Shown here: piece by piece, positions 7,808 through 16,436 of the stretch | Layout: each line of letters starts with the position of its first letter | How positions within the stretch are numbered: position 1 is the stretch's first letter | Origin: a virus | Length of the DNA stretch: 30,347 nucleotides | UHGV virus genome: UHGV-1790783 | Direction: 5' to 3' (one strand) | The notes under the pieces: model-generated | What the model saw: the letters and a program-made list of their open reading frames with translations, nothing else | Database searches by the model: none | What the model was told of the DNA's origin: nothing | Made by a program: the position numbers and the translations under genes

Positions 7808-9064
7808 ATGGCCATCCCGTCGTCTCTGAGTCTCGTACAGCTGCATTCTGGGCAGATGCAAGTCTTCCAGTCGCCACATCGTTTCAAAGTGGTGTGTGCG
7901 GGTCGACGCTGGGGTAAATCCCGGTTGTCGATCTCCACCATCATCCGCGCGGCAGCCAAAGAGAAGAAGCAACGTGTCTGGTACGTCGCACCGACTTACC
8001 AGATGGCTCGCCAGATCTTGTGGGATGACCTGCAGGAAGTTCTGCCGCGCAAATGGGTTCGTAAGAAAAACGACACCACGATGACCATCGTGCTGAAGAA
8101 CGGCTCTGAAATCGCGCTGAAAGGTGCGGATAAGCCCGATACGCTTCGTGGTGTGGCACTGCACTTTGTGGTGCTCGATGAATTTCAGGATATGAAGCCT
8201 GACACCTGGTACAAGGTACTGCGTCCGACACTGTCCTCCACCCGTGGCGGTGCGCTGATCATCGGTACGCCAAAAGGCTTCTCCGAGTTCCACAAGCTGT
8301 GGACTATCGGTCAGAACAAAGATTTGCAACGCAAGGGGCAGTGGAAGAGCTGGCAGTTCGTTACGGCCGATTCTCCGTTCGTACCGAGCGCGGAAATCGA
8401 AGCAGCGAAGAACGATATGGACCCTAAATCGTTCGCACAGGAATACCTGGCCAGCTTCGAAAACATGTCCGGACGCGTTTACTACCCGTTCGACCGCAAT
8501 GTGCATGTGAAGCCACTCCAGTTCAATCCGAAACTGCCGATCTGGGTTGGTCAGGACTTCAACATCGACCCTATGTCATCGGTCATCCTGCAGCCGCAGC
8601 CAAATGGCGAGTTGTGGGCCGTGGACGAGGTTGTGCTGTTCTCTTCCAACACGGCTGAAGTGTGTGATGAGCTGGAGCGCCGTTTCTGGCGCTGGAAGTC
8701 TCAGGTCACTATCTTCCCTGACCCGGCAGGTGCGTATCGCCAGCACGCACGCGGCGAATCGGACGTCGATATCTTCAAGGAAAAAGGTTTCCTTCGAGTC
8801 GATTATCCGAAGAAGCACCCGCCGATCGCAGACCGTGTTAACGCAGTGAACCGCATGTTGATGAGTGCCTCGGGCGAAACCCGGTTGTACATCGATCCGA
8901 AGTGCAAACACCTCATCGACTCGCTGGAGAAGGTGATCTACAAGCCAGGCTCACGCGATATGGATAAGACTGGCGGCATCGAACACAGTGCGGATGCGTT
9001 GGGTTATCCGGTTCATCGTAGGTATCCGGTTAAAAATCGTGTTATTCTTGGTGGATCTAGATAG
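7808..9064 (+). CDS. terL: Terminase large subunit (ATPase + nuclease)
   Basis: ORF track 418 aa. Walker A VVCAGRRWGKS, Walker B HFVVLDEF, C-terminal acidic nuclease-type segment VGQDFNIDP. Confidence 0.9.
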   Translation: MAIPSSLSLVQLHSGQMQVFQSPHRFKVVCAGRRWGKSRLSISTIIRAAAKEKKQRVWYVAPTYQMARQILWDDLQEVLPRKWVRKKNDTTMTIVLKNGSEIALKGADKPDTLRGVALHFVVLDEFQDMKPDTWYKVLRPTLSSTRGGALIIGTPKGFSEFHKLWTIGQNKDLQRKGQWKSWQFVTADSPFVPSAEIEAAKNDMDPKSFAQEYLASFENMSGRVYYPFDRNVHVKPLQFNPKLPIWVGQDFNIDPMSSVILQPQPNGELWAVDEVVLFSSNTAEVCDELERRFWRWKSQVTIFPDPAGAYRQHARGESDVDIFKEKGFLRVDYPKKHPPIADRVNAVNRMLMSASGETRLYIDPKCKHLIDSLEKVIYKPGSRDMDKTGGIEHSADALGYPVHRRYPVKNRVILGGSR

Positions 9065-9097: not shown

Positions 9098-10672
9098 ATG
9101 GAATTGACTGACAAGCAAATCAAAGACCTTGTGGCACGACGCCACCCTGAATATGAGAAGAAAAAAGAACATTGGGACTTCCTCGCCAGCACCTACGCTG
9201 GCGGGCGTGCCTGGTTCAACGACAATATCTTCCGTTACTTCAAAGAGGGCGATCAGGAGTTCAAAGAGCGCCTGGAACGCGCTTATCGCTTCAACCATAC
9301 GCGCGAAGTGGTAAACCTCATCAACAAATACCTCTTCAAAGAGGTCATTCACCGCAACACTGATGAAGCACCGGAGCAGATCCGCAATTTCTGGAAGCGA
9401 GCCACGCGCCAGAACGCCTCCATCGATGCGTTTATGGCGGCTATCGATCTGCAATCATCCATTTATGGCCGTATCTGGGTTGTCGTGGATAGCACGATGA
9501 ACGTCGATGTTGAGTCTGTTGCAGACGAGAAGAAAAATGATGCGCGTGCCTACGCTTACTGGATTTCGCCGCAGCAGCTGCTTGATGTTGCCTGGGATGA
9601 AGACGGCAATATGTTGTGGGCGCTGATTGTTGAAATCGCGCGCGACGACGAAGATCCGTTCACTTCAACCGGGCAGGAATACCAGCGTTACCGTCTGTGG
9701 ACGCAAAACGAGTGGTATCTGTTCCGTGAAGAAGTGAAGAAGGGTTCCGGAAATAGCGGTCGCCGTCAGGCCAAAGTCGTTCTGGAGGATAGCGGCCAGC
9801 ATAATCTGGGCGTGGTGCCGGTGTTCCCGGTGGATTGCATTGGTGAAAGCGAGTCTCCGTATTTTAGCCCGTCGTTGATTGACGATATTGCCTATCTTGA
9901 TCGCGCCGTGGCCAACTACCTGTCGAACCTTGACGCGATTATTCAGGATCAGACATTCAGCCAGTTAGCGATTCCGGTTCAGTCCCTGCTGCCGGGCGAT
10001 GAAAACCACACCAAAGTGCTCGAAATGGGGACAAAACGTGTCTTCACCTTCGATTCTGAGAGCGGTAATCAGCCATTCTATCTGTCTCCAGACCCGAAAC
10101 AGGCTCAGATGATCATCACCACGATTAAGACGGTGATTAATGAGATCTACCATTCCGTTGGTGTGGCTGGTGAGCGAACCAAGCAGGATAACGCGCAGGG
10201 TATCGACAACTCTTCGGGGGCAGCGAAGATGTACGACTTCCAACGTATTAACAGTCTGCTGGTGACAAAAGCAGAGCGCCTCGAAAGGGCAGAACGCCAA
10301 ATGATGGAGTTGGCTGCGAAATGGATGGGCATCGAATTGGATGAAGACCACTCTCTGATCGCTTACCCGGAGAGTTTCGATATTCGTGGTCTGACTGACG
10401 AATTTGCCGTCGCTGAGAAATTGTCGCTGTTACAGGCGCCTGATTCTGTACGTCGTCATCAGATGGAAATGCTCATAGAAAAGATCTTCCCGAATATTTC
10501 CGAAGCGATGCAAAAGGAATTTAAAAAAGATCTCTTGAAATTTCCTCTAAAAAATGCTCCTGGCGCCCTTGAAAATAAGTCAGTACTTACTTATGATCGA
10601 GATACAGTCCAAGAAAGCGGACGAGATCAACCCCGAGGGAATGGGGACTCATCTACTCAAGAGACCGAGTGA
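9098..10672 (+). CDS. Portal protein (putative)
   Basis: ORF track 524 aa, directly after terL and before the scaffold/capsid genes; SD AAAGGA. Assigned by size and conserved gene order. Confidence 0.75.
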   Translation: MELTDKQIKDLVARRHPEYEKKKEHWDFLASTYAGGRAWFNDNIFRYFKEGDQEFKERLERAYRFNHTREVVNLINKYLFKEVIHRNTDEAPEQIRNFWKRATRQNASIDAFMAAIDLQSSIYGRIWVVVDSTMNVDVESVADEKKNDARAYAYWISPQQLLDVAWDEDGNMLWALIVEIARDDEDPFTSTGQEYQRYRLWTQNEWYLFREEVKKGSGNSGRRQAKVVLEDSGQHNLGVVPVFPVDCIGESESPYFSPSLIDDIAYLDRAVANYLSNLDAIIQDQTFSQLAIPVQSLLPGDENHTKVLEMGTKRVFTFDSESGNQPFYLSPDPKQAQMIITTIKTVINEIYHSVGVAGERTKQDNAQGIDNSSGAAKMYDFQRINSLLVTKAERLERAERQMMELAAKWMGIELDEDHSLIAYPESFDIRGLTDEFAVAEKLSLLQAPDSVRRHQMEMLIEKIFPNISEAMQKEFKKDLLKFPLKNAPGALENKSVLTYDRDTVQESGRDQPRGNGDSSTQETE

Positions 10673-10694: not shown

Positions 10695-11591
10695 ATGAAT
10701 CTGTGGCAAATGCTTATGGCCCGTCGTGGCCTGATGGATGTAGCCGAAGCGCATGAGCGCGGCGGCGCTGGTGGCGGTGCTCCTGCTGGAGACAATGAGC
10801 AGAGCATTCAAGACCCAGGCAAACAGGGCGAGCAAAAAGAGCAACCGAAGGGTGACGACGATGAGTATGCCGGTATGACTCAGGAAGAGTTGCTGGCAGA
10901 ACTGCGTAAGTCTAAGAAAGCCGGTGCTGATCTGTTGAAAGAGAACATGAAGCGCAAGGAGAAAGAGCGCACATTGGCCGATCAGCTGGCTCAGTACGGT
11001 GATATTGACCCGACGCGTGCTCGTCAGCTTCTCGAAGCTGAACAAGCCGCAGAAACCGCACGTCGGGAGGCGGAGCAGGCTGAACTGGAACGTCGTGGTG
11101 AGTTCGATGCTGTGAAAAAGCAGATGATCGAAGCACACCAGACTGAACTGGCACAGCGCGACGAACGCTACTCCGCTCTGGAGAGCGAGAACGCCGCACT
11201 GAAGGCTCAACTGGTCGAAATGACTGTTGGTGTTTCCTTCAGCAGTTCTGCTTTCCTGCGTGACAAAGTTCTGATGACTCCGGCTAAGGCACGCGTTATC
11301 TACGGCTCTCATTTCGAAGTGGGTGAAGACGGTAGTGTTGTGGGCTTTGATAAGCCAGCCGGTCAGAAAGAACGTGCAGTTCTGGTTGACGGTGAAGGCA
11401 AGCCGTTACCGTTCGAATCCGCGATTGAGCGCATTCTGCGTGCAGATCCGGAAGCTGACGCACTGTTGCGTAGCGAAGCCAAGCAGGGTGCTGGTTCCAA
11501 TAGCAAACCGACCCACAAAGTAAGCCAGCCGAAGAGCAAGTCGACTATGGATAAGTTGACCTCCGGTCTGGGAAAAATCGGACTCAAGTAA
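10695..11591 (+). CDS. Scaffolding-like protein (putative)
   Basis: ORF track 298 aa; Gly/Ala-rich N-terminus, long charged helical (coiled-coil-like) middle, located between portal and major capsid gene. No protease motif recognised. Confidence 0.55.
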   Translation: MNLWQMLMARRGLMDVAEAHERGGAGGGAPAGDNEQSIQDPGKQGEQKEQPKGDDDEYAGMTQEELLAELRKSKKAGADLLKENMKRKEKERTLADQLAQYGDIDPTRARQLLEAEQAAETARREAEQAELERRGEFDAVKKQMIEAHQTELAQRDERYSALESENAALKAQLVEMTVGVSFSSSAFLRDKVLMTPAKARVIYGSHFEVGEDGSVVGFDKPAGQKERAVLVDGEGKPLPFESAIERILRADPEADALLRSEAKQGAGSNSKPTHKVSQPKSKSTMDKLTSGLGKIGLK

Positions 11592-11617
11592 CATCTTAAA
11601 TCATAGGGAAATGAAAG

Positions 11618-12493
11618 ATGCCATTACTGCGTGATGAAGCTGAAAAGCTGTCTAATAACGAACTTGAGCAGGGTGTGATCGAGACCATCATCGATCGCGA
11701 TGACCTGTTCGCTATTCTGCCTTTCATGAAGATTAATTCTAAGGCATACCTTTACAACCGCGAAGCTACCCTGAGCGAAGCTACCTTCATTGATGTGAAC
11801 GACACCATCACTGAAGGCGCAGCAACCTTCAGCGAACACGTTGCGAAGCTACGTATCCTGGCAGGCGACGTAGACGTCGACAAATTCCTGGCGACCACTA
11901 TGTCCGACACCAACAACCAGCTGGCAATCCAGGTTCGTCAGAAGGTGAAAGGTCTGGCTCGCGCATTCCGCCGCAACCTGATTCTGGGCGACTCCAGCAC
12001 CAACACCAAAGCGTTCGACGGTATTCCGAAACTGATGCACGACGATCAGAAGATCGATATCGAAGGCGCTTCCATGACCTTCTCCATGTTCGACGAACTG
12101 GTCGACGCGGTGAAAGATCTGGGTGCGGACTGCATCATGATGCGCTCCGAGCATCTGCGTGCTTATCGCGCTCTGCTGCGTACCGTTAATATCGGCCCGT
12201 CCGAAATTATGATGGAAAACTTCGGTCGACCGATGTTGTGCCACAACGGTGTACCTTTCATCGTGAACGACTTCATCCCGACTGACGCGGGCAAAGCAAG
12301 CATCTACTGTCTGCACCTGTCCGAAGAGAACGGTGTGACCGGTCTGTATGGCGGTGAAAACGCTGGTATCGTTGTTGAGAACATCGGTACTGTTCAGAAC
12401 AAAGACGCAACCCGTACCCGCGTTAAGTGGTACTGCTCTCTGGCGAACAAGCACGACAAAGCTATCGCCGCGCTGACCAATGTAAAAATTTGA
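11618..12493 (+). CDS. Major capsid protein (putative)
   Basis: ORF track 291 aa, strong SD, follows the scaffold gene and is followed by a strong intrinsic terminator. Assigned by position and size. Confidence 0.65.
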   Translation: MPLLRDEAEKLSNNELEQGVIETIIDRDDLFAILPFMKINSKAYLYNREATLSEATFIDVNDTITEGAATFSEHVAKLRILAGDVDVDKFLATTMSDTNNQLAIQVRQKVKGLARAFRRNLILGDSSTNTKAFDGIPKLMHDDQKIDIEGASMTFSMFDELVDAVKDLGADCIMMRSEHLRAYRALLRTVNIGPSEIMMENFGRPMLCHNGVPFIVNDFIPTDAGKASIYCLHLSEENGVTGLYGGENAGIVVENIGTVQNKDATRTRVKWYCSLANKHDKAIAALTNVKI

Positions 12494-12528
12494 TCAGAAT
12501 AGTAGGTAAATAGTTATCTACTTAATAT

Positions 12529-12554
12529 GGGTGGGCTATACGCCCACCTTTTTT
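12529..12554 (+). terminator. Rho-independent terminator after the capsid gene
   Basis: Seen in sequence: GGTGGGC-TATAC-GCCCACC (7-bp GC-rich stem) followed by TTTTTT. Confidence 0.85.
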
Positions 12555-12567
12555 GTAGGAGTGATAA

Positions 12568-12996
12568 ATGCCAGAACAAAAGATGAAAATCATGGAGGAG
12601 ACGTTTGCGGATTTCACAGGGCATATGTGCCGTGCCGGATTCACCAACTCCGTCTCCAACGAGCCTCTGAGCGAGCGCCAGCAGAACCATCTTGCGGCTT
12701 GCTTCCGGACAGTTCCGTTCACGCAGTCTGTCAGCGTGGAGTCTGTTGCTCTGACTCCTGATTCTGTCTCTGTTGAGAAGGGGAAGTCAGTCAAATTGCG
12801 AGTTGATGTGCAACCGTCAAACGCAACCAATCAAAAAGTCACCTGGACTTCTCAAAATAGCGACAAAGCGACCGTGGATCAGAACGGTAACGTAGTTGGC
12901 GTAGCCGTTGGTACGGCAACCATTGAAGTGGCTTCACAGGATGGCAGTCACAAAGCGACTGCGACCGTTGAAGTGACCGCAGCACCGGCTGCGTAA
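12568..12996 (+). CDS. Ig-like (Big_2-type) domain protein, probable capsid decoration/accessory protein
   Basis: ORF track 142 aa, SD TAGGAGTG. C-terminal ~80 aa (VTWTSQNSDKATVDQNGNVVGVAVGTATIEVASQDG...) resembles bacterial Ig-like group 2 domains and the C-terminus of the major tail protein in this window. Confidence 0.7.
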   Translation: MPEQKMKIMEETFADFTGHMCRAGFTNSVSNEPLSERQQNHLAACFRTVPFTQSVSVESVALTPDSVSVEKGKSVKLRVDVQPSNATNQKVTWTSQNSDKATVDQNGNVVGVAVGTATIEVASQDGSHKATATVEVTAAPAA

Positions 12997-13039
12997 CCAA
13001 CATATGGGCAGCATAGCTGTCCATTAAGTGAGAAGAAAA

Positions 13040-13474
13040 ATGAAACCAGCAAAAATTCGTTTATTGGAGCCTCAATTTTTGGGGTACACGGGGATTCTCT
13101 GCGGTATCAAGTTTGTAGACGGTATCTCAGTTGCTGAACTGCCATTCGTCGATCAGCAGCGGATTTGTGCTTCCATGCGTGCGACTACCGTTGAAGGTAA
13201 AAATGTATCTCCTTCTGCCGCGTACAGTAGCCGCAATAACTTGACTGCGGAAGACATTGTCGAGACGCCAGCCCCGGATATTGTGCCAATGAAACGTGGT
13301 GCGGCTGAAACAAAGCCCAAACCGGTACAGCGCTTTACTCGTGAAGAACTGGAGTCGATTGCGGACTGTGAAGGTATTGCGGGTCTTCGTCAGATCGGCA
13401 ACCAAATTGGCGTGAAAGCCAAAGGCATCGTTGAAATGATCGAGGGTATCCTGAAAGCACAGGGCGGTGAGTAA
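13040..13474 (+). CDS. Hypothetical head/neck-region protein
   Basis: In-frame ATG at 13040 within track ORF 13028..13474 (GTGAGAAG upstream). Stop overlaps next start (TAATG). Function unassigned. Confidence 0.5.
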   Translation: MKPAKIRLLEPQFLGYTGILCGIKFVDGISVAELPFVDQQRICASMRATTVEGKNVSPSAAYSSRNNLTAEDIVETPAPDIVPMKRGAAETKPKPVQRFTREELESIADCEGIAGLRQIGNQIGVKAKGIVEMIEGILKAQGGE

Positions 13475-14307
13475 TGGCACAGATCGACACGTACCGTAGC
13501 GGGGAAGCCGTTTCCCTGTCGTTTGCATTTAACGTTCTGGGTATTGAGTCGGCAACGTATACCGTCAGAGATGGCGCTGGTTCGATCATCGTTGATAACG
13601 AACCTCTCGATATTACTGAGGGGCAGATGTCCATTCCGGTTGTCGTGTCGGCCGAACACAACCTGCTTGCCGACAAAGAGCGCGATCTGCGTTACGTCCT
13701 CGTCAAAGCGGTGGCATCCGGTCTGACGCATGAAGAGCGCAAGATGTACGTTCTGCTAAATAGCTTCGAGCTGTCTATTCCAGGCCAGTCATTCGCAACG
13801 GTCGCAGACGCCCAGATGCAAGCCATCGACATGCTGAACGGCGACACTCTGTTGGCTGATGGTGACGGGCTGATGCGCAAACGTCTCATTGAGGCCACCA
13901 GACGCGTCAAAACGCTGCCGTTTTCAATCCGCAAAGTCCTTCGTATCGATTTCGATCGGTACGACCGTCCACAAAACATGCTGAACGTATATGACGTACC
14001 GTGGGGTGCTGACGGGGCATATCGTCACGATCTGATTGATTGGGAGAAGATGACGCAGGATAAATTCGACGAATTCCCTGACTACTTCAAACAGACATTA
14101 ATGCTGGCCGTGGTTAATGAAGCCTGCGAAATCGCTAACGGCAATGACGTAGCGGCAGCTCGCGAGGACGGCATCCTGTCTGAATCCATTGGTGAAACGA
14201 CAAATATGTACCGCACCGGCAAAGCGGCAAATTTACATGTGGCTCGCAGTACCTGGAGACTGCTGGTCAGCTACATCAACAACCGCATGATTGTTCGCCG
14301 TGCGTAA
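13474..14307 (+). CDS. Hypothetical structural protein (head-tail connector/adaptor region)
   Basis: ORF track 277 aa, coupled to the upstream gene; position between capsid and tail genes. No motif recognised. Confidence 0.5.
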   Translation: MAQIDTYRSGEAVSLSFAFNVLGIESATYTVRDGAGSIIVDNEPLDITEGQMSIPVVVSAEHNLLADKERDLRYVLVKAVASGLTHEERKMYVLLNSFELSIPGQSFATVADAQMQAIDMLNGDTLLADGDGLMRKRLIEATRRVKTLPFSIRKVLRIDFDRYDRPQNMLNVYDVPWGADGAYRHDLIDWEKMTQDKFDEFPDYFKQTLMLAVVNEACEIANGNDVAAAREDGILSESIGETTNMYRTGKAANLHVARSTWRLLVSYINNRMIVRRA

Positions 14308-14404
14308 CGCCAGTCGCATTATTTACTTCTGGTCGAAAGGCTCAAGACGCACAATCGCGCCTTCGCCTGGTAATGCGTGCGGATGCCAACCACAGGGAGA
14401 GTGC

Positions 14405-14749
14405 ATGAACATTTCATGGCAAGCAGAGATGGCGATTTACCGTCTGGGTTCGAAGAATGTCTACGGTGAAGTGCAATTGCAGTTCGTCAGGAAGACGAAC
14501 GTCGGTGTCGTTAAGTTTGAACAAAGTAATGAGAAGTCATCGGTACGTGCGGACAGCTCCGGCAGTCGCGGAAAAGCCAATATGGAATTGTTCGATGCCG
14601 TTCTGGTGGTCCCACTTGAGGCCGCAGTACAGCTTGATGACGTTCTCATTCTGGAGGGGCAAAAGCTGAAGGTATCCAGCGTGCATCGTCGCTGGGGACT
14701 GCGTGGGCGCCCTGGGCATCTGGAAGTAGGGGCAAACATATGGGTCTGA
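14405..14749 (+). CDS. Hypothetical head-tail joining protein
   Basis: ATG at 14405 with SD AGGGAGAG; the track ORF 14291..14749 starts at a non-ATG codon overlapping the previous gene, which I consider less likely. Confidence 0.45.
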   Translation: MNISWQAEMAIYRLGSKNVYGEVQLQFVRKTNVGVVKFEQSNEKSSVRADSSGSRGKANMELFDAVLVVPLEAAVQLDDVLILEGQKLKVSSVHRRWGLRGRPGHLEVGANIWV

Positions 14750-15213
14750 AGTACGACGCGCATCAGTTTAAGCGTGCTGGCGACAGGCTCAATAACAGCC
14801 AGAAAGCCTTTAAGCGTTATCTCATCCGTGACATGGAGAAGCTGGCGCGTCTGGTTGAGCGTCTGGCGCGGGCAATGGCTCCGCTGGAGACTGGCTCACT
14901 CGAAAGCGCGATCTTCGCGAGAGTGGTCAAAGAGGGTTATACCGGGCTGCGTATTGAGTTATCGGTATCCGGGGCCAAGCCACGCGAGGGGCATCCGGGC
15001 GTTGAGGTTGGCGATTATGCGGAGTACATGGAATTGGGTAAGTATCGTCTCGGCTATCTCTCTCGCATGAAGAGCGTCACCAACCCGCCAGTCGCTGGTG
15101 TGAAGCCACGAGTTGGGCCTTTGTTCCTTGAGAGAGCCGTACAGATCAGTGAGAAACAGTTCACTCAGACGATAGCTGAAGCGGCAAGGAAAGCAGGTTT
15201 TACGAGAGGTTGA
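14740..15213 (+). CDS. Hypothetical head-tail joining / tail completion protein
   Basis: ORF track 157 aa, ATG overlaps the upstream stop; SD GGAAGTAGGGG. Assigned by position only. Confidence 0.5.
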   Translation: MGLKYDAHQFKRAGDRLNNSQKAFKRYLIRDMEKLARLVERLARAMAPLETGSLESAIFARVVKEGYTGLRIELSVSGAKPREGHPGVEVGDYAEYMELGKYRLGYLSRMKSVTNPPVAGVKPRVGPLFLERAVQISEKQFTQTIAEAARKAGFTRG

Positions 15214-15214
15214 T

Positions 15215-15598
15215 GTGTTTATTGAAGCATTTGCGAGCCTGATGCAGAAGGCGAAGATCGGTACACTCGGCACTGACATCTTTTGTCACTACATGCCAGC
15301 CAATGTGAAGTCCGGTGTTCTGTTGGTTAATCCCAATACGGGGATCGCTATTGACCATGAGTTGAAAGGCTTTTATCACGACTCTTTTACCGTCATCGTG
15401 CGTAATGCGACGATCACAAAGGCGGTGGCGAAAGCCAATAAGATCATGGACATGTTTCCGGTCGAGGAAACCGTGTCAGATGGCGTTTACTTCCGGTTGG
15501 TACGACCAATGTCGATGCCGATAACTTATCCAAAAAACGAAGGCTCGTTGATTGAAGCGGGCATCCCGATTGAATTTGCGGGCTATTTGTTGAATTAA
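15215..15598 (+). CDS. Hypothetical tail component immediately upstream of the major tail protein (possible tail terminator)
   Basis: ORF track 127 aa with GTG start 2 nt after the upstream stop (GAGAGG SD). Role is positional inference. Confidence 0.45.
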   Translation: MFIEAFASLMQKAKIGTLGTDIFCHYMPANVKSGVLLVNPNTGIAIDHELKGFYHDSFTVIVRNATITKAVAKANKIMDMFPVEETVSDGVYFRLVRPMSMPITYPKNEGSLIEAGIPIEFAGYLLN

Positions 15599-15620
15599 CA
15601 AAATAAGTAAGTATATACTT
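15590..15620 (+). promoter_or_regulatory. Putative promoter for the major tail protein gene containing the ATAAGTAAGTA motif
   Basis: Seen in sequence: TTGAAT (15590..15595), 18-nt spacer containing ATAAGTAAG, then TATACT (15614..15619); contains the 12-bp palindrome AAGTATATACTT. Confidence 0.5.
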
Positions 15621-15672
15621 GCTATTGGCGCCATGAAGGTGCTGATTTAACGGAAAAAGGAGTTTTCCAACA

Positions 15673-16419
15673 ATGTCCAATACCCATGTAAAAAACATCA
15701 AACTTGGCGCCTGCAAAGTGTCGTTTGGTGGTGTTGATCTGGGTTACACCAAAGGCGGTGTTCAGGTTGAGGTTGCGACCGAAACTCTGAAAGTTACCGT
15801 AGACCAGCTAGGGCAAACCACCATCTCCGAGCTGGTACAGGGCCGTAACATCACTATCACTGCGCCGCTGGCTGAGTCTGTGTTGCAGAATATGGTCGAT
15901 CTGATGCCGGGTTCTACCCTGAGTGAAGAAGATAACTCTGTGACCATCACTTCCGCACAGGGCGTCAACCTGATCGACGTAGCTAAAGAGCTGGTTCTGA
16001 CCCCGCAGGATACCACCGACTACGTTCTGACCATCCCGAAAGCTGCGACCGCAGGTAACTTCACCATGACCTACCAGTCTGATGATGTTCGCGTGTTCTC
16101 GGTTCAGTTCACCGCTTACCCGGATGACGACGGTATTCTGGGGAAAATGAGCGGCCCAAAGCCGGTTAAATCCGTCTCTATCTCTCCGGATTCTCCGGAA
16201 GTTAAAGCCGGTGAGAGCGTGCAGCTGGCAGCCCAGATCACACCTGCAGATGCCGGCGACAAAACCGGTGTGTGGGAGTCCGACAATCAGGAGAAGGCTA
16301 CCGTTGATCAGACTGGTCTGGTTCGCGGAGTAGCTGAAGGTTCGGCAAATATCTCCTTCACCAGCAATAGCGGCGGCAAGAAAGCGACCAAAGCTGTAAC
16401 GGTTAATTCTGCCGAATAA
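15673..16419 (+). CDS. Major tail (tube) protein with C-terminal Ig-like (Big_2) domain
   Basis: ORF track 248 aa, strong SD AAAGGAG, flanked by promoter-like motif and terminator. C-terminal ~80 aa (VWESDNQEKATVDQTGLVRGVAEGSANISF...) is Big_2-like; the domain architecture resembles lambda gpV as I recall it. Confidence 0.8.
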   Translation: MSNTHVKNIKLGACKVSFGGVDLGYTKGGVQVEVATETLKVTVDQLGQTTISELVQGRNITITAPLAESVLQNMVDLMPGSTLSEEDNSVTITSAQGVNLIDVAKELVLTPQDTTDYVLTIPKAATAGNFTMTYQSDDVRVFSVQFTAYPDDDGILGKMSGPKPVKSVSISPDSPEVKAGESVQLAAQITPADAGDKTGVWESDNQEKATVDQTGLVRGVAEGSANISFTSNSGGKKATKAVTVNSAE

Positions 16420-16436
16420 TCGTGACGTGACTAAGC

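Follow-up and report, generated by a model that had tools for sequence, protein, structure and literature searches.

Two Big_2 proteins in a siphovirus gene module

A 30,347-nucleotide stretch of viral DNA, UHGV virus genome UHGV-1790783 (the window), encodes two proteins that each carry an immunoglobulin-like (Ig-like) domain belonging to the Big_2 family. One is a 142-amino-acid protein whose gene directly follows that of the major capsid protein (MCP), called here the head Ig protein. The other is the 248-amino-acid major tail protein (MTP). A first-pass annotation, made from the DNA letters, had described both open reading frames (ORFs) and quoted a peptide from each. Both ORFs exist as described, both peptides lie in them, and domain profiling with PF02368 places a Big_2 domain at the end of both products. 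The same annotation called the two domains near-paralogous and proposed that they had been shuffled recently within this genome. The features that bear on these claims are as follows.

12529-12555, plus strand: terminator-like hairpin GGGTGGGC-TATAC-GCCCACC (hairpin 12529-12549) with a T run, between the MCP and head Ig genes (terminator scan, sequence)
12557-12561, plus strand: Shine-Dalgarno sequence AGGAG, 6 nucleotides 5' of ATG 12568 (sequence)
12568-12996, plus strand: head Ig protein, 142 amino acids
12568-12723, plus strand: N-terminal module of about 50 residues of the head Ig protein, residues 1-52 (phrog_35209, E 1.4e-40, residues 1-58)
12736-12969, plus strand: Big_2 of the head Ig protein, residues 57-134 (Pfam PF02368, E 2.2e-25, 88.9 bits; pLDDT >90)
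13040-13474, plus strand: next gene, 144 amino acids from ATG 13040 (phrog_916)
15673-16419, plus strand: MTP, 248 amino acids
15673-16152, plus strand: tail-tube domain of the MTP, residues 1-160 (gene order, phrog_1280, phrog_2175, major-tail-protein PHROGs)
16162-16398, plus strand: Big_2 of the MTP, residues 164-242, an in-frame fusion (Pfam PF02368, E 2.8e-26, 91.7 bits; pLDDT about 95)

SSU5-type phage-plasmids are frequent in clinical Enterobacteriaceae, and they form a well-described group (PMC7969092). Nucleotides 11600-16500 of the window are 94.6% identical to Salmonella phage SSU5. The same interval matches Escherichia coli plasmids of 106-120 kb at up to 99.8% identity, and 784 plasmid records match it. 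Because of these matches, we take the window to come from an E. coli phage-plasmid of the SSU5 type, of which it represents the virion module. Judged by its gene content, the region around both Ig genes is a siphovirus virion module. Both genes already carry an Ig label in public records for SSU5 and SSU5-like plasmids, either 'Ig domain-containing protein' or 'structural protein with Ig domain'.

By domain, modelled fold and gene position, the MTP appears to be a tail tube protein of the lambda gpV type, which agrees with the first-pass annotation. The gene for the tail terminator precedes it, and the chaperone pair and then the tape measure follow. The MTP model has a pLDDT of 85.5. Its top PDB matches in Foldseek over both domains (about 256-285 columns) are tube proteins: gp13 of mycobacteriophage Douge (E 2.3e-11), T5 pb6 (8.7e-11), DT57C (8.7e-11) and lambda gpV (3.1e-9). 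TM-scores stay near 0.4, a consequence of the differing orientation of the two domains. The MTP Big_2 taken singly superposes on the Big_2 of PDB 7quz with a root-mean-square deviation of 0.8 Å over 82 columns. Both Big_2 domains of the window score above the gathering threshold of 22.8 bits and are modelled as all-beta with pLDDT >90, which points to an Ig-like beta-sandwich in each. The SSU5 counterpart of the MTP, SSU5_012, is 97.6% identical.

The head Ig gene has its own AGGAG and ATG and lies behind a hairpin; it is therefore a separate translation unit and not an extension of the MCP. The idea that frameshifting or read-through might append the head Ig domain to the MCP was considered and rejected, given the 75-nucleotide gap, the terminator-like hairpin, the gene's own initiation signals and several stops in the first 30 nucleotides 3' of the MCP stop codon (TGA TCA GAA TAG TAG GTA AAT AG). 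A comparable hairpin, GGGTGGGC...GCCCACCC with a T run, lies 3' of the MCP gene in the relative L009. The hairpin at 12529-12555 is likely an attenuator, so that the head Ig protein would be made in a smaller amount than the MCP. The first-pass description of this product as capsid-associated holds insofar as the gene for this small protein immediately follows that of the MCP; its association with the capsid we infer from gene position and PHROG category.

Divergence of the head and tail Big_2 domains

BLASTP of the 142-amino-acid protein against the MTP returns one ungapped alignment in which 38 of 83 positions (46%) are identical, with 64% positives and an E value of 2e-19. The two domains are homologous far beyond chance, as expected within one Pfam family. 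The 'close similarity' reported earlier was overstated, however. The 33-residue peptide on which attention had fallen is the most conserved Big_2 core, about 56% identical, and over the whole domain the proteins agree at 46% and the DNA at 51%. When the domains are aligned by codon, identity at third positions is 30%, near random, and the longest exact run is 8 nucleotides. A repeat search found no head-tail DNA repeat beyond a 14-nucleotide chance match. A recent duplicate should have high DNA identity and unsaturated synonymous sites, and the two copies should be each other's closest relatives apart from orthologues. Neither holds for this pair.

The comparison with relatives gives the same picture. 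Orthologues of the window's domains stand at 61-96% identity in relatives whose genomes are about 78% identical, and this is also the range of mutual identity among the tail domains of SSU5, Cyrano, PhiR41_1 and the Klebsiella relatives. Head-tail pairs lie at 38-52% in the identity matrix, with no excess within genomes over that between genomes. The Klebsiella tail domain matches the window head domain better (52%) than the window's own tail domain does (45%), and there is therefore no sign of intragenomic homogenisation. Concerted evolution of head and tail domains by gene conversion was rejected on the same within-genome and between-genome identities. In the Salmonella, Klebsiella and E. 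coli relatives, each of the two domains is conserved on its own. Recent exchange finds no place here because the head and tail lineages appear to have been distinct already before these relatives split, and the proposal of recent shuffling within this genome falls with it.

How alike unrelated Big_2 domains can be was judged from a background set. An exhaustive HMMER search with the head Big_2 found 65,049 representative proteins at E <= 0.001. Its ranking was dominated by giant multi-repeat bacterial proteins, whose scores are summed over repeats, and could not rank single domains. The background therefore consists of 2355 single Big_2 repeats taken from the top 150 proteins, all of them unrelated giant repeat proteins. 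Identity of these repeats to the head domain has a median of 37.5% and a 99th percentile of 49.4%. Identities of at least 45.8% are reached by 121 of the 2355 repeats, and 29 of the 2355 score at least as many bits as the head-tail pair.

Single proteins from outside the group do as well or better. In a phmmer comparison with the head domain, the Big_2 of a Paenibacillus beta-1,3-glucanase (PDB 7quz) scores 60.8 bits, exactly as the window's tail domain does. Against the tail domain, the Big_2 of gp227 from Arash, an unrelated 180-kb Salmonella phage, reaches 54% identity and 79.7 bits, whereas the window head domain reaches 46% and 67 bits. The head-tail identity is thus no higher than that found among unrelated Big_2 domains, the outcome that the first-pass annotation had itself named as refuting its proposal. 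Even where the tube domain of an MTP is 75-79% identical, the tail Big_2 in the equivalent position is just 41-51% identical to that of the window, which is the head-versus-tail level. The 46% identity appears to reflect membership of a strongly conserved domain family and not recent exchange. The useful result is a negative one: 46% identity between two Big_2 domains is uninformative on recent exchange, since conservation across the family is strong enough for unrelated members to be just as alike.

Arash gp227 (L006:898-1749), a 283-amino-acid protein, has two Big_2 domains and is encoded directly 3' of the MCP gene, yet is annotated 'major tail protein'. The label is probably an Ig-driven mis-annotation; similarly, the record MK422451 names the head Ig protein's Klebsiella orthologue 'tail tube protein'.

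Variation of the head array and of tail attachment

The direct orthologues of the two window genes in SSU5 are SSU5_006 and SSU5_012 (NC_018843). SSU5_006 has the same N-terminal module as the window head protein, followed by three Big_2 units (H1, H2 and H3) in 307 residues. The window protein differs in having one unit, which corresponds to H2 at 88% amino acid identity, and in an H2/H3 chimera at the 3' end of its gene. A word-indexed search with the whole head protein gave 30 matches, all family members, and was used for architectures and not for the background. After the N-terminal module, the family shows the following arrangements.

H1+H2+H3: SSU5 (307 amino acids), Cyrano (301 amino acids)
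H1+H2: 220-amino-acid forms, for example in Salmonella
H2+H3: P0001
H1 alone: P0018
H2 alone: the window
H3 alone: Klebsiella relatives, P0013
No Big_2 unit, with a short Pro/Lys/Glu-rich tail instead: L007, L011, L012
Head Ig gene absent: PhiR41_1, L009

Two places in the window gene mark where units differ from the three-unit form.

12728-12733, plus strand: CTGTCA, a 6-nucleotide microhomology where the SSU5 H1 unit (234 nucleotides) is missing (alignment, junction sequences)
12943-12996, plus strand: 3' end of the head Ig gene, where H2-like sequence switches to H3-like sequence inside the shared DGSHKATATVEVT motif (about 12943-12960) (alignment)

In SSU5, CTGTCA is present at the start of H1 and again at the start of H2. 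At the other end, the final 30 nucleotides of the window gene match the SSU5 H3 end at 30 of 30 positions and the H2 end at 19 of 30. This reads as the mark of in-register recombination between H2 and H3, with a loss of 261 nucleotides. The one-unit form in the window looks derived from a three-unit form, such as SSU5_006 (L001:2469-3392), by two in-frame deletions. Domain shuffling does appear to be present, but inside the head gene's own array and not between head and tail.

The N-terminal module is the constant part of the family. It precedes every Big_2 combination and stands alone in L007, L011 and L012. From the adjacency of its gene to that of the MCP, and from its occurrence with and without Ig units, we propose the module as a virion (capsid) anchor. 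It also has kin next door. The N-termini of the head Ig protein (12568-12723) and of the next gene product (13040-13195) are homologous in hhalign (probability 92.9%, E 3.7e-7, 26% identity, ungapped), and phrog_916 matches both proteins. BLASTP of one protein against the other gives no match, so the kinship is visible only by profile-profile comparison. All relatives examined (L001-L005, L007, L009, L011 and L012) have a counterpart of the next gene, of 142-145 amino acids and in matching position; this was established by sequence comparison for L001-L005 and by size and position for the others. The gene is kept even in relatives that have no head Ig gene. The two adjacent genes thus appear to share an N-terminal module, possibly a common virion-binding part.

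Among relatives, both domains, the tail domain alone and neither domain all occur; a head domain alone was not seen in those examined. Neither the head protein nor the MTP carries a Big_2 in the Xenorhabdus and Providencia relatives. Homologues of the tube domain vary at the C-terminus, which may be an in-frame Big_2, another domain, an insertion or nothing. The junction of the tube domain and Big_2 in the window contains a slippery sequence.

16155-16161, plus strand: heptamer C_CCA_AAG in X_XXY_YYZ phase, at the tube/Big_2 junction (gene nucleotide 483) (sequence)

How Big_2 is attached at this site differs among close relatives, in frame in some and behind a -1 frameshift site in others. 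In the window, Big_2 is read on in frame 0, and the -1 frame runs into a stop two codons on (PKAG*). In the diverged relatives L007, L009 and L010, the MTP ORF stops after 163 amino acids, directly 3' of C_CCA_AAG, at three different stop codons (TGA, TAA and TAG). A Big_2 ORF of 84-86 amino acids lies in their -1 frame (L007:6483-6743, L009:4483-4750, L010:1945-2214). This is the classical layout of an Ig-like extension added by programmed -1 frameshifting, and we infer that mode of expression for the three relatives. Frameshift-appended Ig domains, as far as Fraser et al. 2006 and PMC5009743 describe them, match L007, L009 and L010 in layout. The window keeps the heptamer at the gene position where these three have theirs, but its Big_2 is decoded in frame with no frameshift needed, so it does not belong to that type. 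Ig-like extensions in phages are known in both forms, in frame and frameshifted (PMC5009743).

This heptamer lies at one and the same gene position in SSU5, the Klebsiella relatives and the window, with Big_2 in frame and the -1 frame closed after two codons. Conservation of the slippery form among in-frame relatives is not strict, since Cyrano has CCT AAA and PhiR41_1 has CCA AAA. Because of these two, the window heptamer is most likely a relic, with a low probability of functional frameshifting. It is improbable that the window gene still frameshifts there and yields a minority tube-only subunit of about 164 amino acids beside the 248-amino-acid Big_2 form. Were it so, the window would mirror those relatives that make the short form by default and reach the Big_2 form through a frameshift. 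A one-step indel at the slippery site would then switch tail Ig density between sparse and full, with both products kept.

Two further observations concern the MTP C-terminus. Several E. coli MTP variant clusters (P0204-P0207 and P0210, some of 77-80 members) have differing frameshifts or indels in or just before Big_2, with the tube domain intact. These truncated forms may be sequencing or assembly errors, decaying elements, or cases of tolerated Ig loss. In the Xenorhabdus and Providencia relatives (L011:4480-4600, L012:4470-4620), the MTP genes finish in poly-A runs (A_AAA_AAA/G), and an extension in an alternative frame, starting KKKVTPPV, is common to both, which hints at a frameshifted short tail replacing the Ig domain.

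Two display modules, known systems and the surrounding genes

We consider it probable (roughly 0.7) that the window holds two separately maintained surface-display modules of the Big_2 family on an SSU5-type phage-plasmid. On the tail, every tube subunit would be expected to carry Big_2 because the domain is in frame, and it would be displayed on the tail exterior. On the head, the 142-amino-acid protein would be bound to the capsid through its N-terminal module of about 50 residues and would display one Big_2. Both displays may serve as accessory modules, probably not essential, that bind weakly to carbohydrates on surfaces or to mucus. Such a role fits the ease with which close relatives gain and lose units. 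The weak-adhesion hypothesis is that of Fraser et al. 2006 as given in PMC8718954, which calls its experimental verification still due. The changes that look recent are those in head unit number and identity and in the mode of tail Big_2 attachment, and not head-tail exchange.

Several points weigh against this account. The literature search found no proteomic or cryo-electron microscopy study of SSU5-like virions, and the placement of the 142-amino-acid protein on the capsid is indirect. Its N-terminal module is modelled with low confidence: in the AlphaFold model, built on a shallow 17-sequence alignment, residues 1-30 have pLDDT <50 and residues 36-48 form one helix, beside a Big_2 with pLDDT >90. 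A PDB sequence search with the protein gave matches confined to residues 51-141 and none for residues 1-50. The polarity from three units to one rests on parsimony over few genomes and on the chimeric 3' end. Frameshifting in the relatives is read from sequence only; 3' of the L007, L009 and L010 sites a hairpin lies 5-8 nucleotides downstream in each, with no common structure and an unfavourable covariation term, and so no conserved RNA stimulator was found there. Finally, the head-tail pair ranks high against the background, within about its top 1-5%, which leaves room for an old common origin in the phage lineage.

Such an origin is the alternative that survives best, although we regard it as unlikely. 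It would have H2/H3-type and tail-type Big_2 domains descend from one domain copied within the SSU5-like lineage before the family diversified. Ig-like domains are known to have moved from one phage structural gene to another (PMC5009743). Tail domains are 42-52% identical to H2/H3, somewhat closer than H1 is to H2/H3 (38-44%), and all Big_2 domains of the phage-plasmid group lie within a band of 40-60% identity. However, nearly the same band also takes in the glucanase domain (36-54%) and that of Arash (39-54%). Since unrelated domains lie there too, an 80-residue domain at such divergence carries no lineage-specific signal.

Somewhat less likely still is that the 142-amino-acid protein is a neck, tail or non-virion protein, in which case there would be no display on head plus tail. 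The 'tail tube protein' label in MK422451 speaks for this, as do the many tail proteins among the PHROG matches of the Big_2 part and an N-terminal module shared with the next gene. The tail-protein matches, however, cover the Big_2 part only (residues ~50-140), and the PHROG that matches best over the full length is 'structural protein with Ig domain' in the category head and packaging. The gene always lies between those for the MCP and the adaptor or head-completion proteins, and the real tube protein is encoded elsewhere. As for a recent copy of one Big_2 from the other, in this genome or its immediate ancestors, the ungapped alignment and a score above about 95-99% of background repeats cannot offset the DNA divergence, the much closer orthologues, the closer Klebsiella tail domain and the equally good or better matches to unrelated proteins, and we find it hardly credible.

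Ig-like domains on head decoration proteins and on tail tube proteins are textbook material, from T5 pb10 and pb6 to lambda gpV and T4 Hoc. The arrangement of two display modules is already known, and nothing in the window is new in kind; its genes are already annotated as Ig-domain genes in SSU5 and hundreds of plasmids. The nearest tail model is lambda gpV, with a tube domain at residues 1-156 and a C-terminal Big_2 at 157-246 (PMC8718954; PDB 2l04, 6p3e, 7t4f). The window MTP has the same two-domain layout with a C-terminal Big_2 in a protein of nearly the same length (248 versus 246 amino acids), its gene likewise lies between a tail terminator and a frameshifted chaperone pair, its fold matches over both domains, and the Big_2 sequences match. 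Unlike these, the tube domains have no detectable sequence similarity, and the Big_2 part alone matches in PDB sequence searches. Loss of the Ig domain lowers gpV activity 100-fold (PMC8718954). That domain lies along the tube in lambda and projects outward in T5; the window MTP may follow either arrangement.

T5 offers the parallel for one virion with both displays. Its pb10 consists of an alpha-helical N-terminal capsid-binding domain and a C-terminal Ig-like domain (PMC5292684), and its tube protein pb6 carries a Big_2 (PMC8718954; PDB 5ngj). As is proposed for the window, an Ig-like domain on a small head protein is combined with Big_2 on the tube protein. Unlike pb6, in which the tube domain is duplicated, the window MTP has a single tube domain. 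The N-terminal module of the head Ig protein (about 50 residues, poorly modelled) has no sequence similarity to the pb10 binding domain. In T4 Hoc and Hoc-like proteins (PDB 7x30_P; PMC10385173), a variable string of Ig units is joined to a conserved capsid-binding part, much as 0-3 units follow the constant module here, and the Big_2 units of 7x30_P match both window domains. The capsid-binding domain of Hoc is C-terminal, whereas the constant module in the window protein is N-terminal, and there is no homology outside the Ig units. By sequence the head Ig protein belongs to neither the pb10 nor the Hoc family, and the resemblance is one of architecture.

Three by-products may be of use for work on SSU5-type phage-plasmids, all within known phenomena: the 0-3-unit head array, the shared N-terminal module, and the tail Big_2 attached in frame or in the -1 frame. 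The variants of the head array and of tail attachment form a natural series for testing the effects of Ig display on adsorption or surface retention.

The remaining genes of the module are listed below.

7808-9064: large terminase
9098-10672: portal
10695-11591: scaffold
11618-12493, plus strand: MCP, 291 amino acids (phrog_212 'major head protein', E 1.3e-107; MCP annotation in SSU5)
13474-14307: adaptor-like protein
14408-14749 and 14740-15213: two small neck proteins
15215-15598: tail terminator (PF12691)
16479-16796: tail chaperone, extended in the -1 frame to 17146
from 17133: tape measure, 1528 amino acids

The MCP has weak Pfam matches to SrpI-like, GP7 and SU10_MCP. In PhiR41_1, which has no head Ig gene, the MCP (L005:2484-3404) has a 15-residue Glu/Lys/Gly-rich insertion, PKNGVKVTEGSEQKTEGQEGTAN, that replaces PTDAGKAS near the C-terminal third and may be an alternative surface feature. 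In L011, a Xenorhabdus hominickii plasmid-like contig, a 49-amino-acid ORF (L011:1027-1176) with a Pfam Tad2-like match (anti-Thoeris family) lies between the MCP gene and the module-only head gene. This ORF looks like anti-defence cargo, a small gene lodged inside the virion module.

The chaperone gene ends in GCA AAG TAA (16788-16796), and its -1 frame is open over 16783-17146. This is the conserved G/GT-type -1 frameshift layout of siphovirus tail chaperones, and the A_AAG-plus-stop context resembles the MTP site of the relatives. GC-rich hairpins lie 3' of both the MCP and MTP genes (12529-12555 and about 16437-16462), which encode the two most abundant virion proteins. The post-MTP hairpin, AGAGGCTC-AGGAA-GAGCCTCT, has a weaker T tract than the T run of the post-MCP hairpin. 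In L007 its counterpart sits 3' of the -1 frame Big_2 ORF and not 3' of the MTP stop codon.

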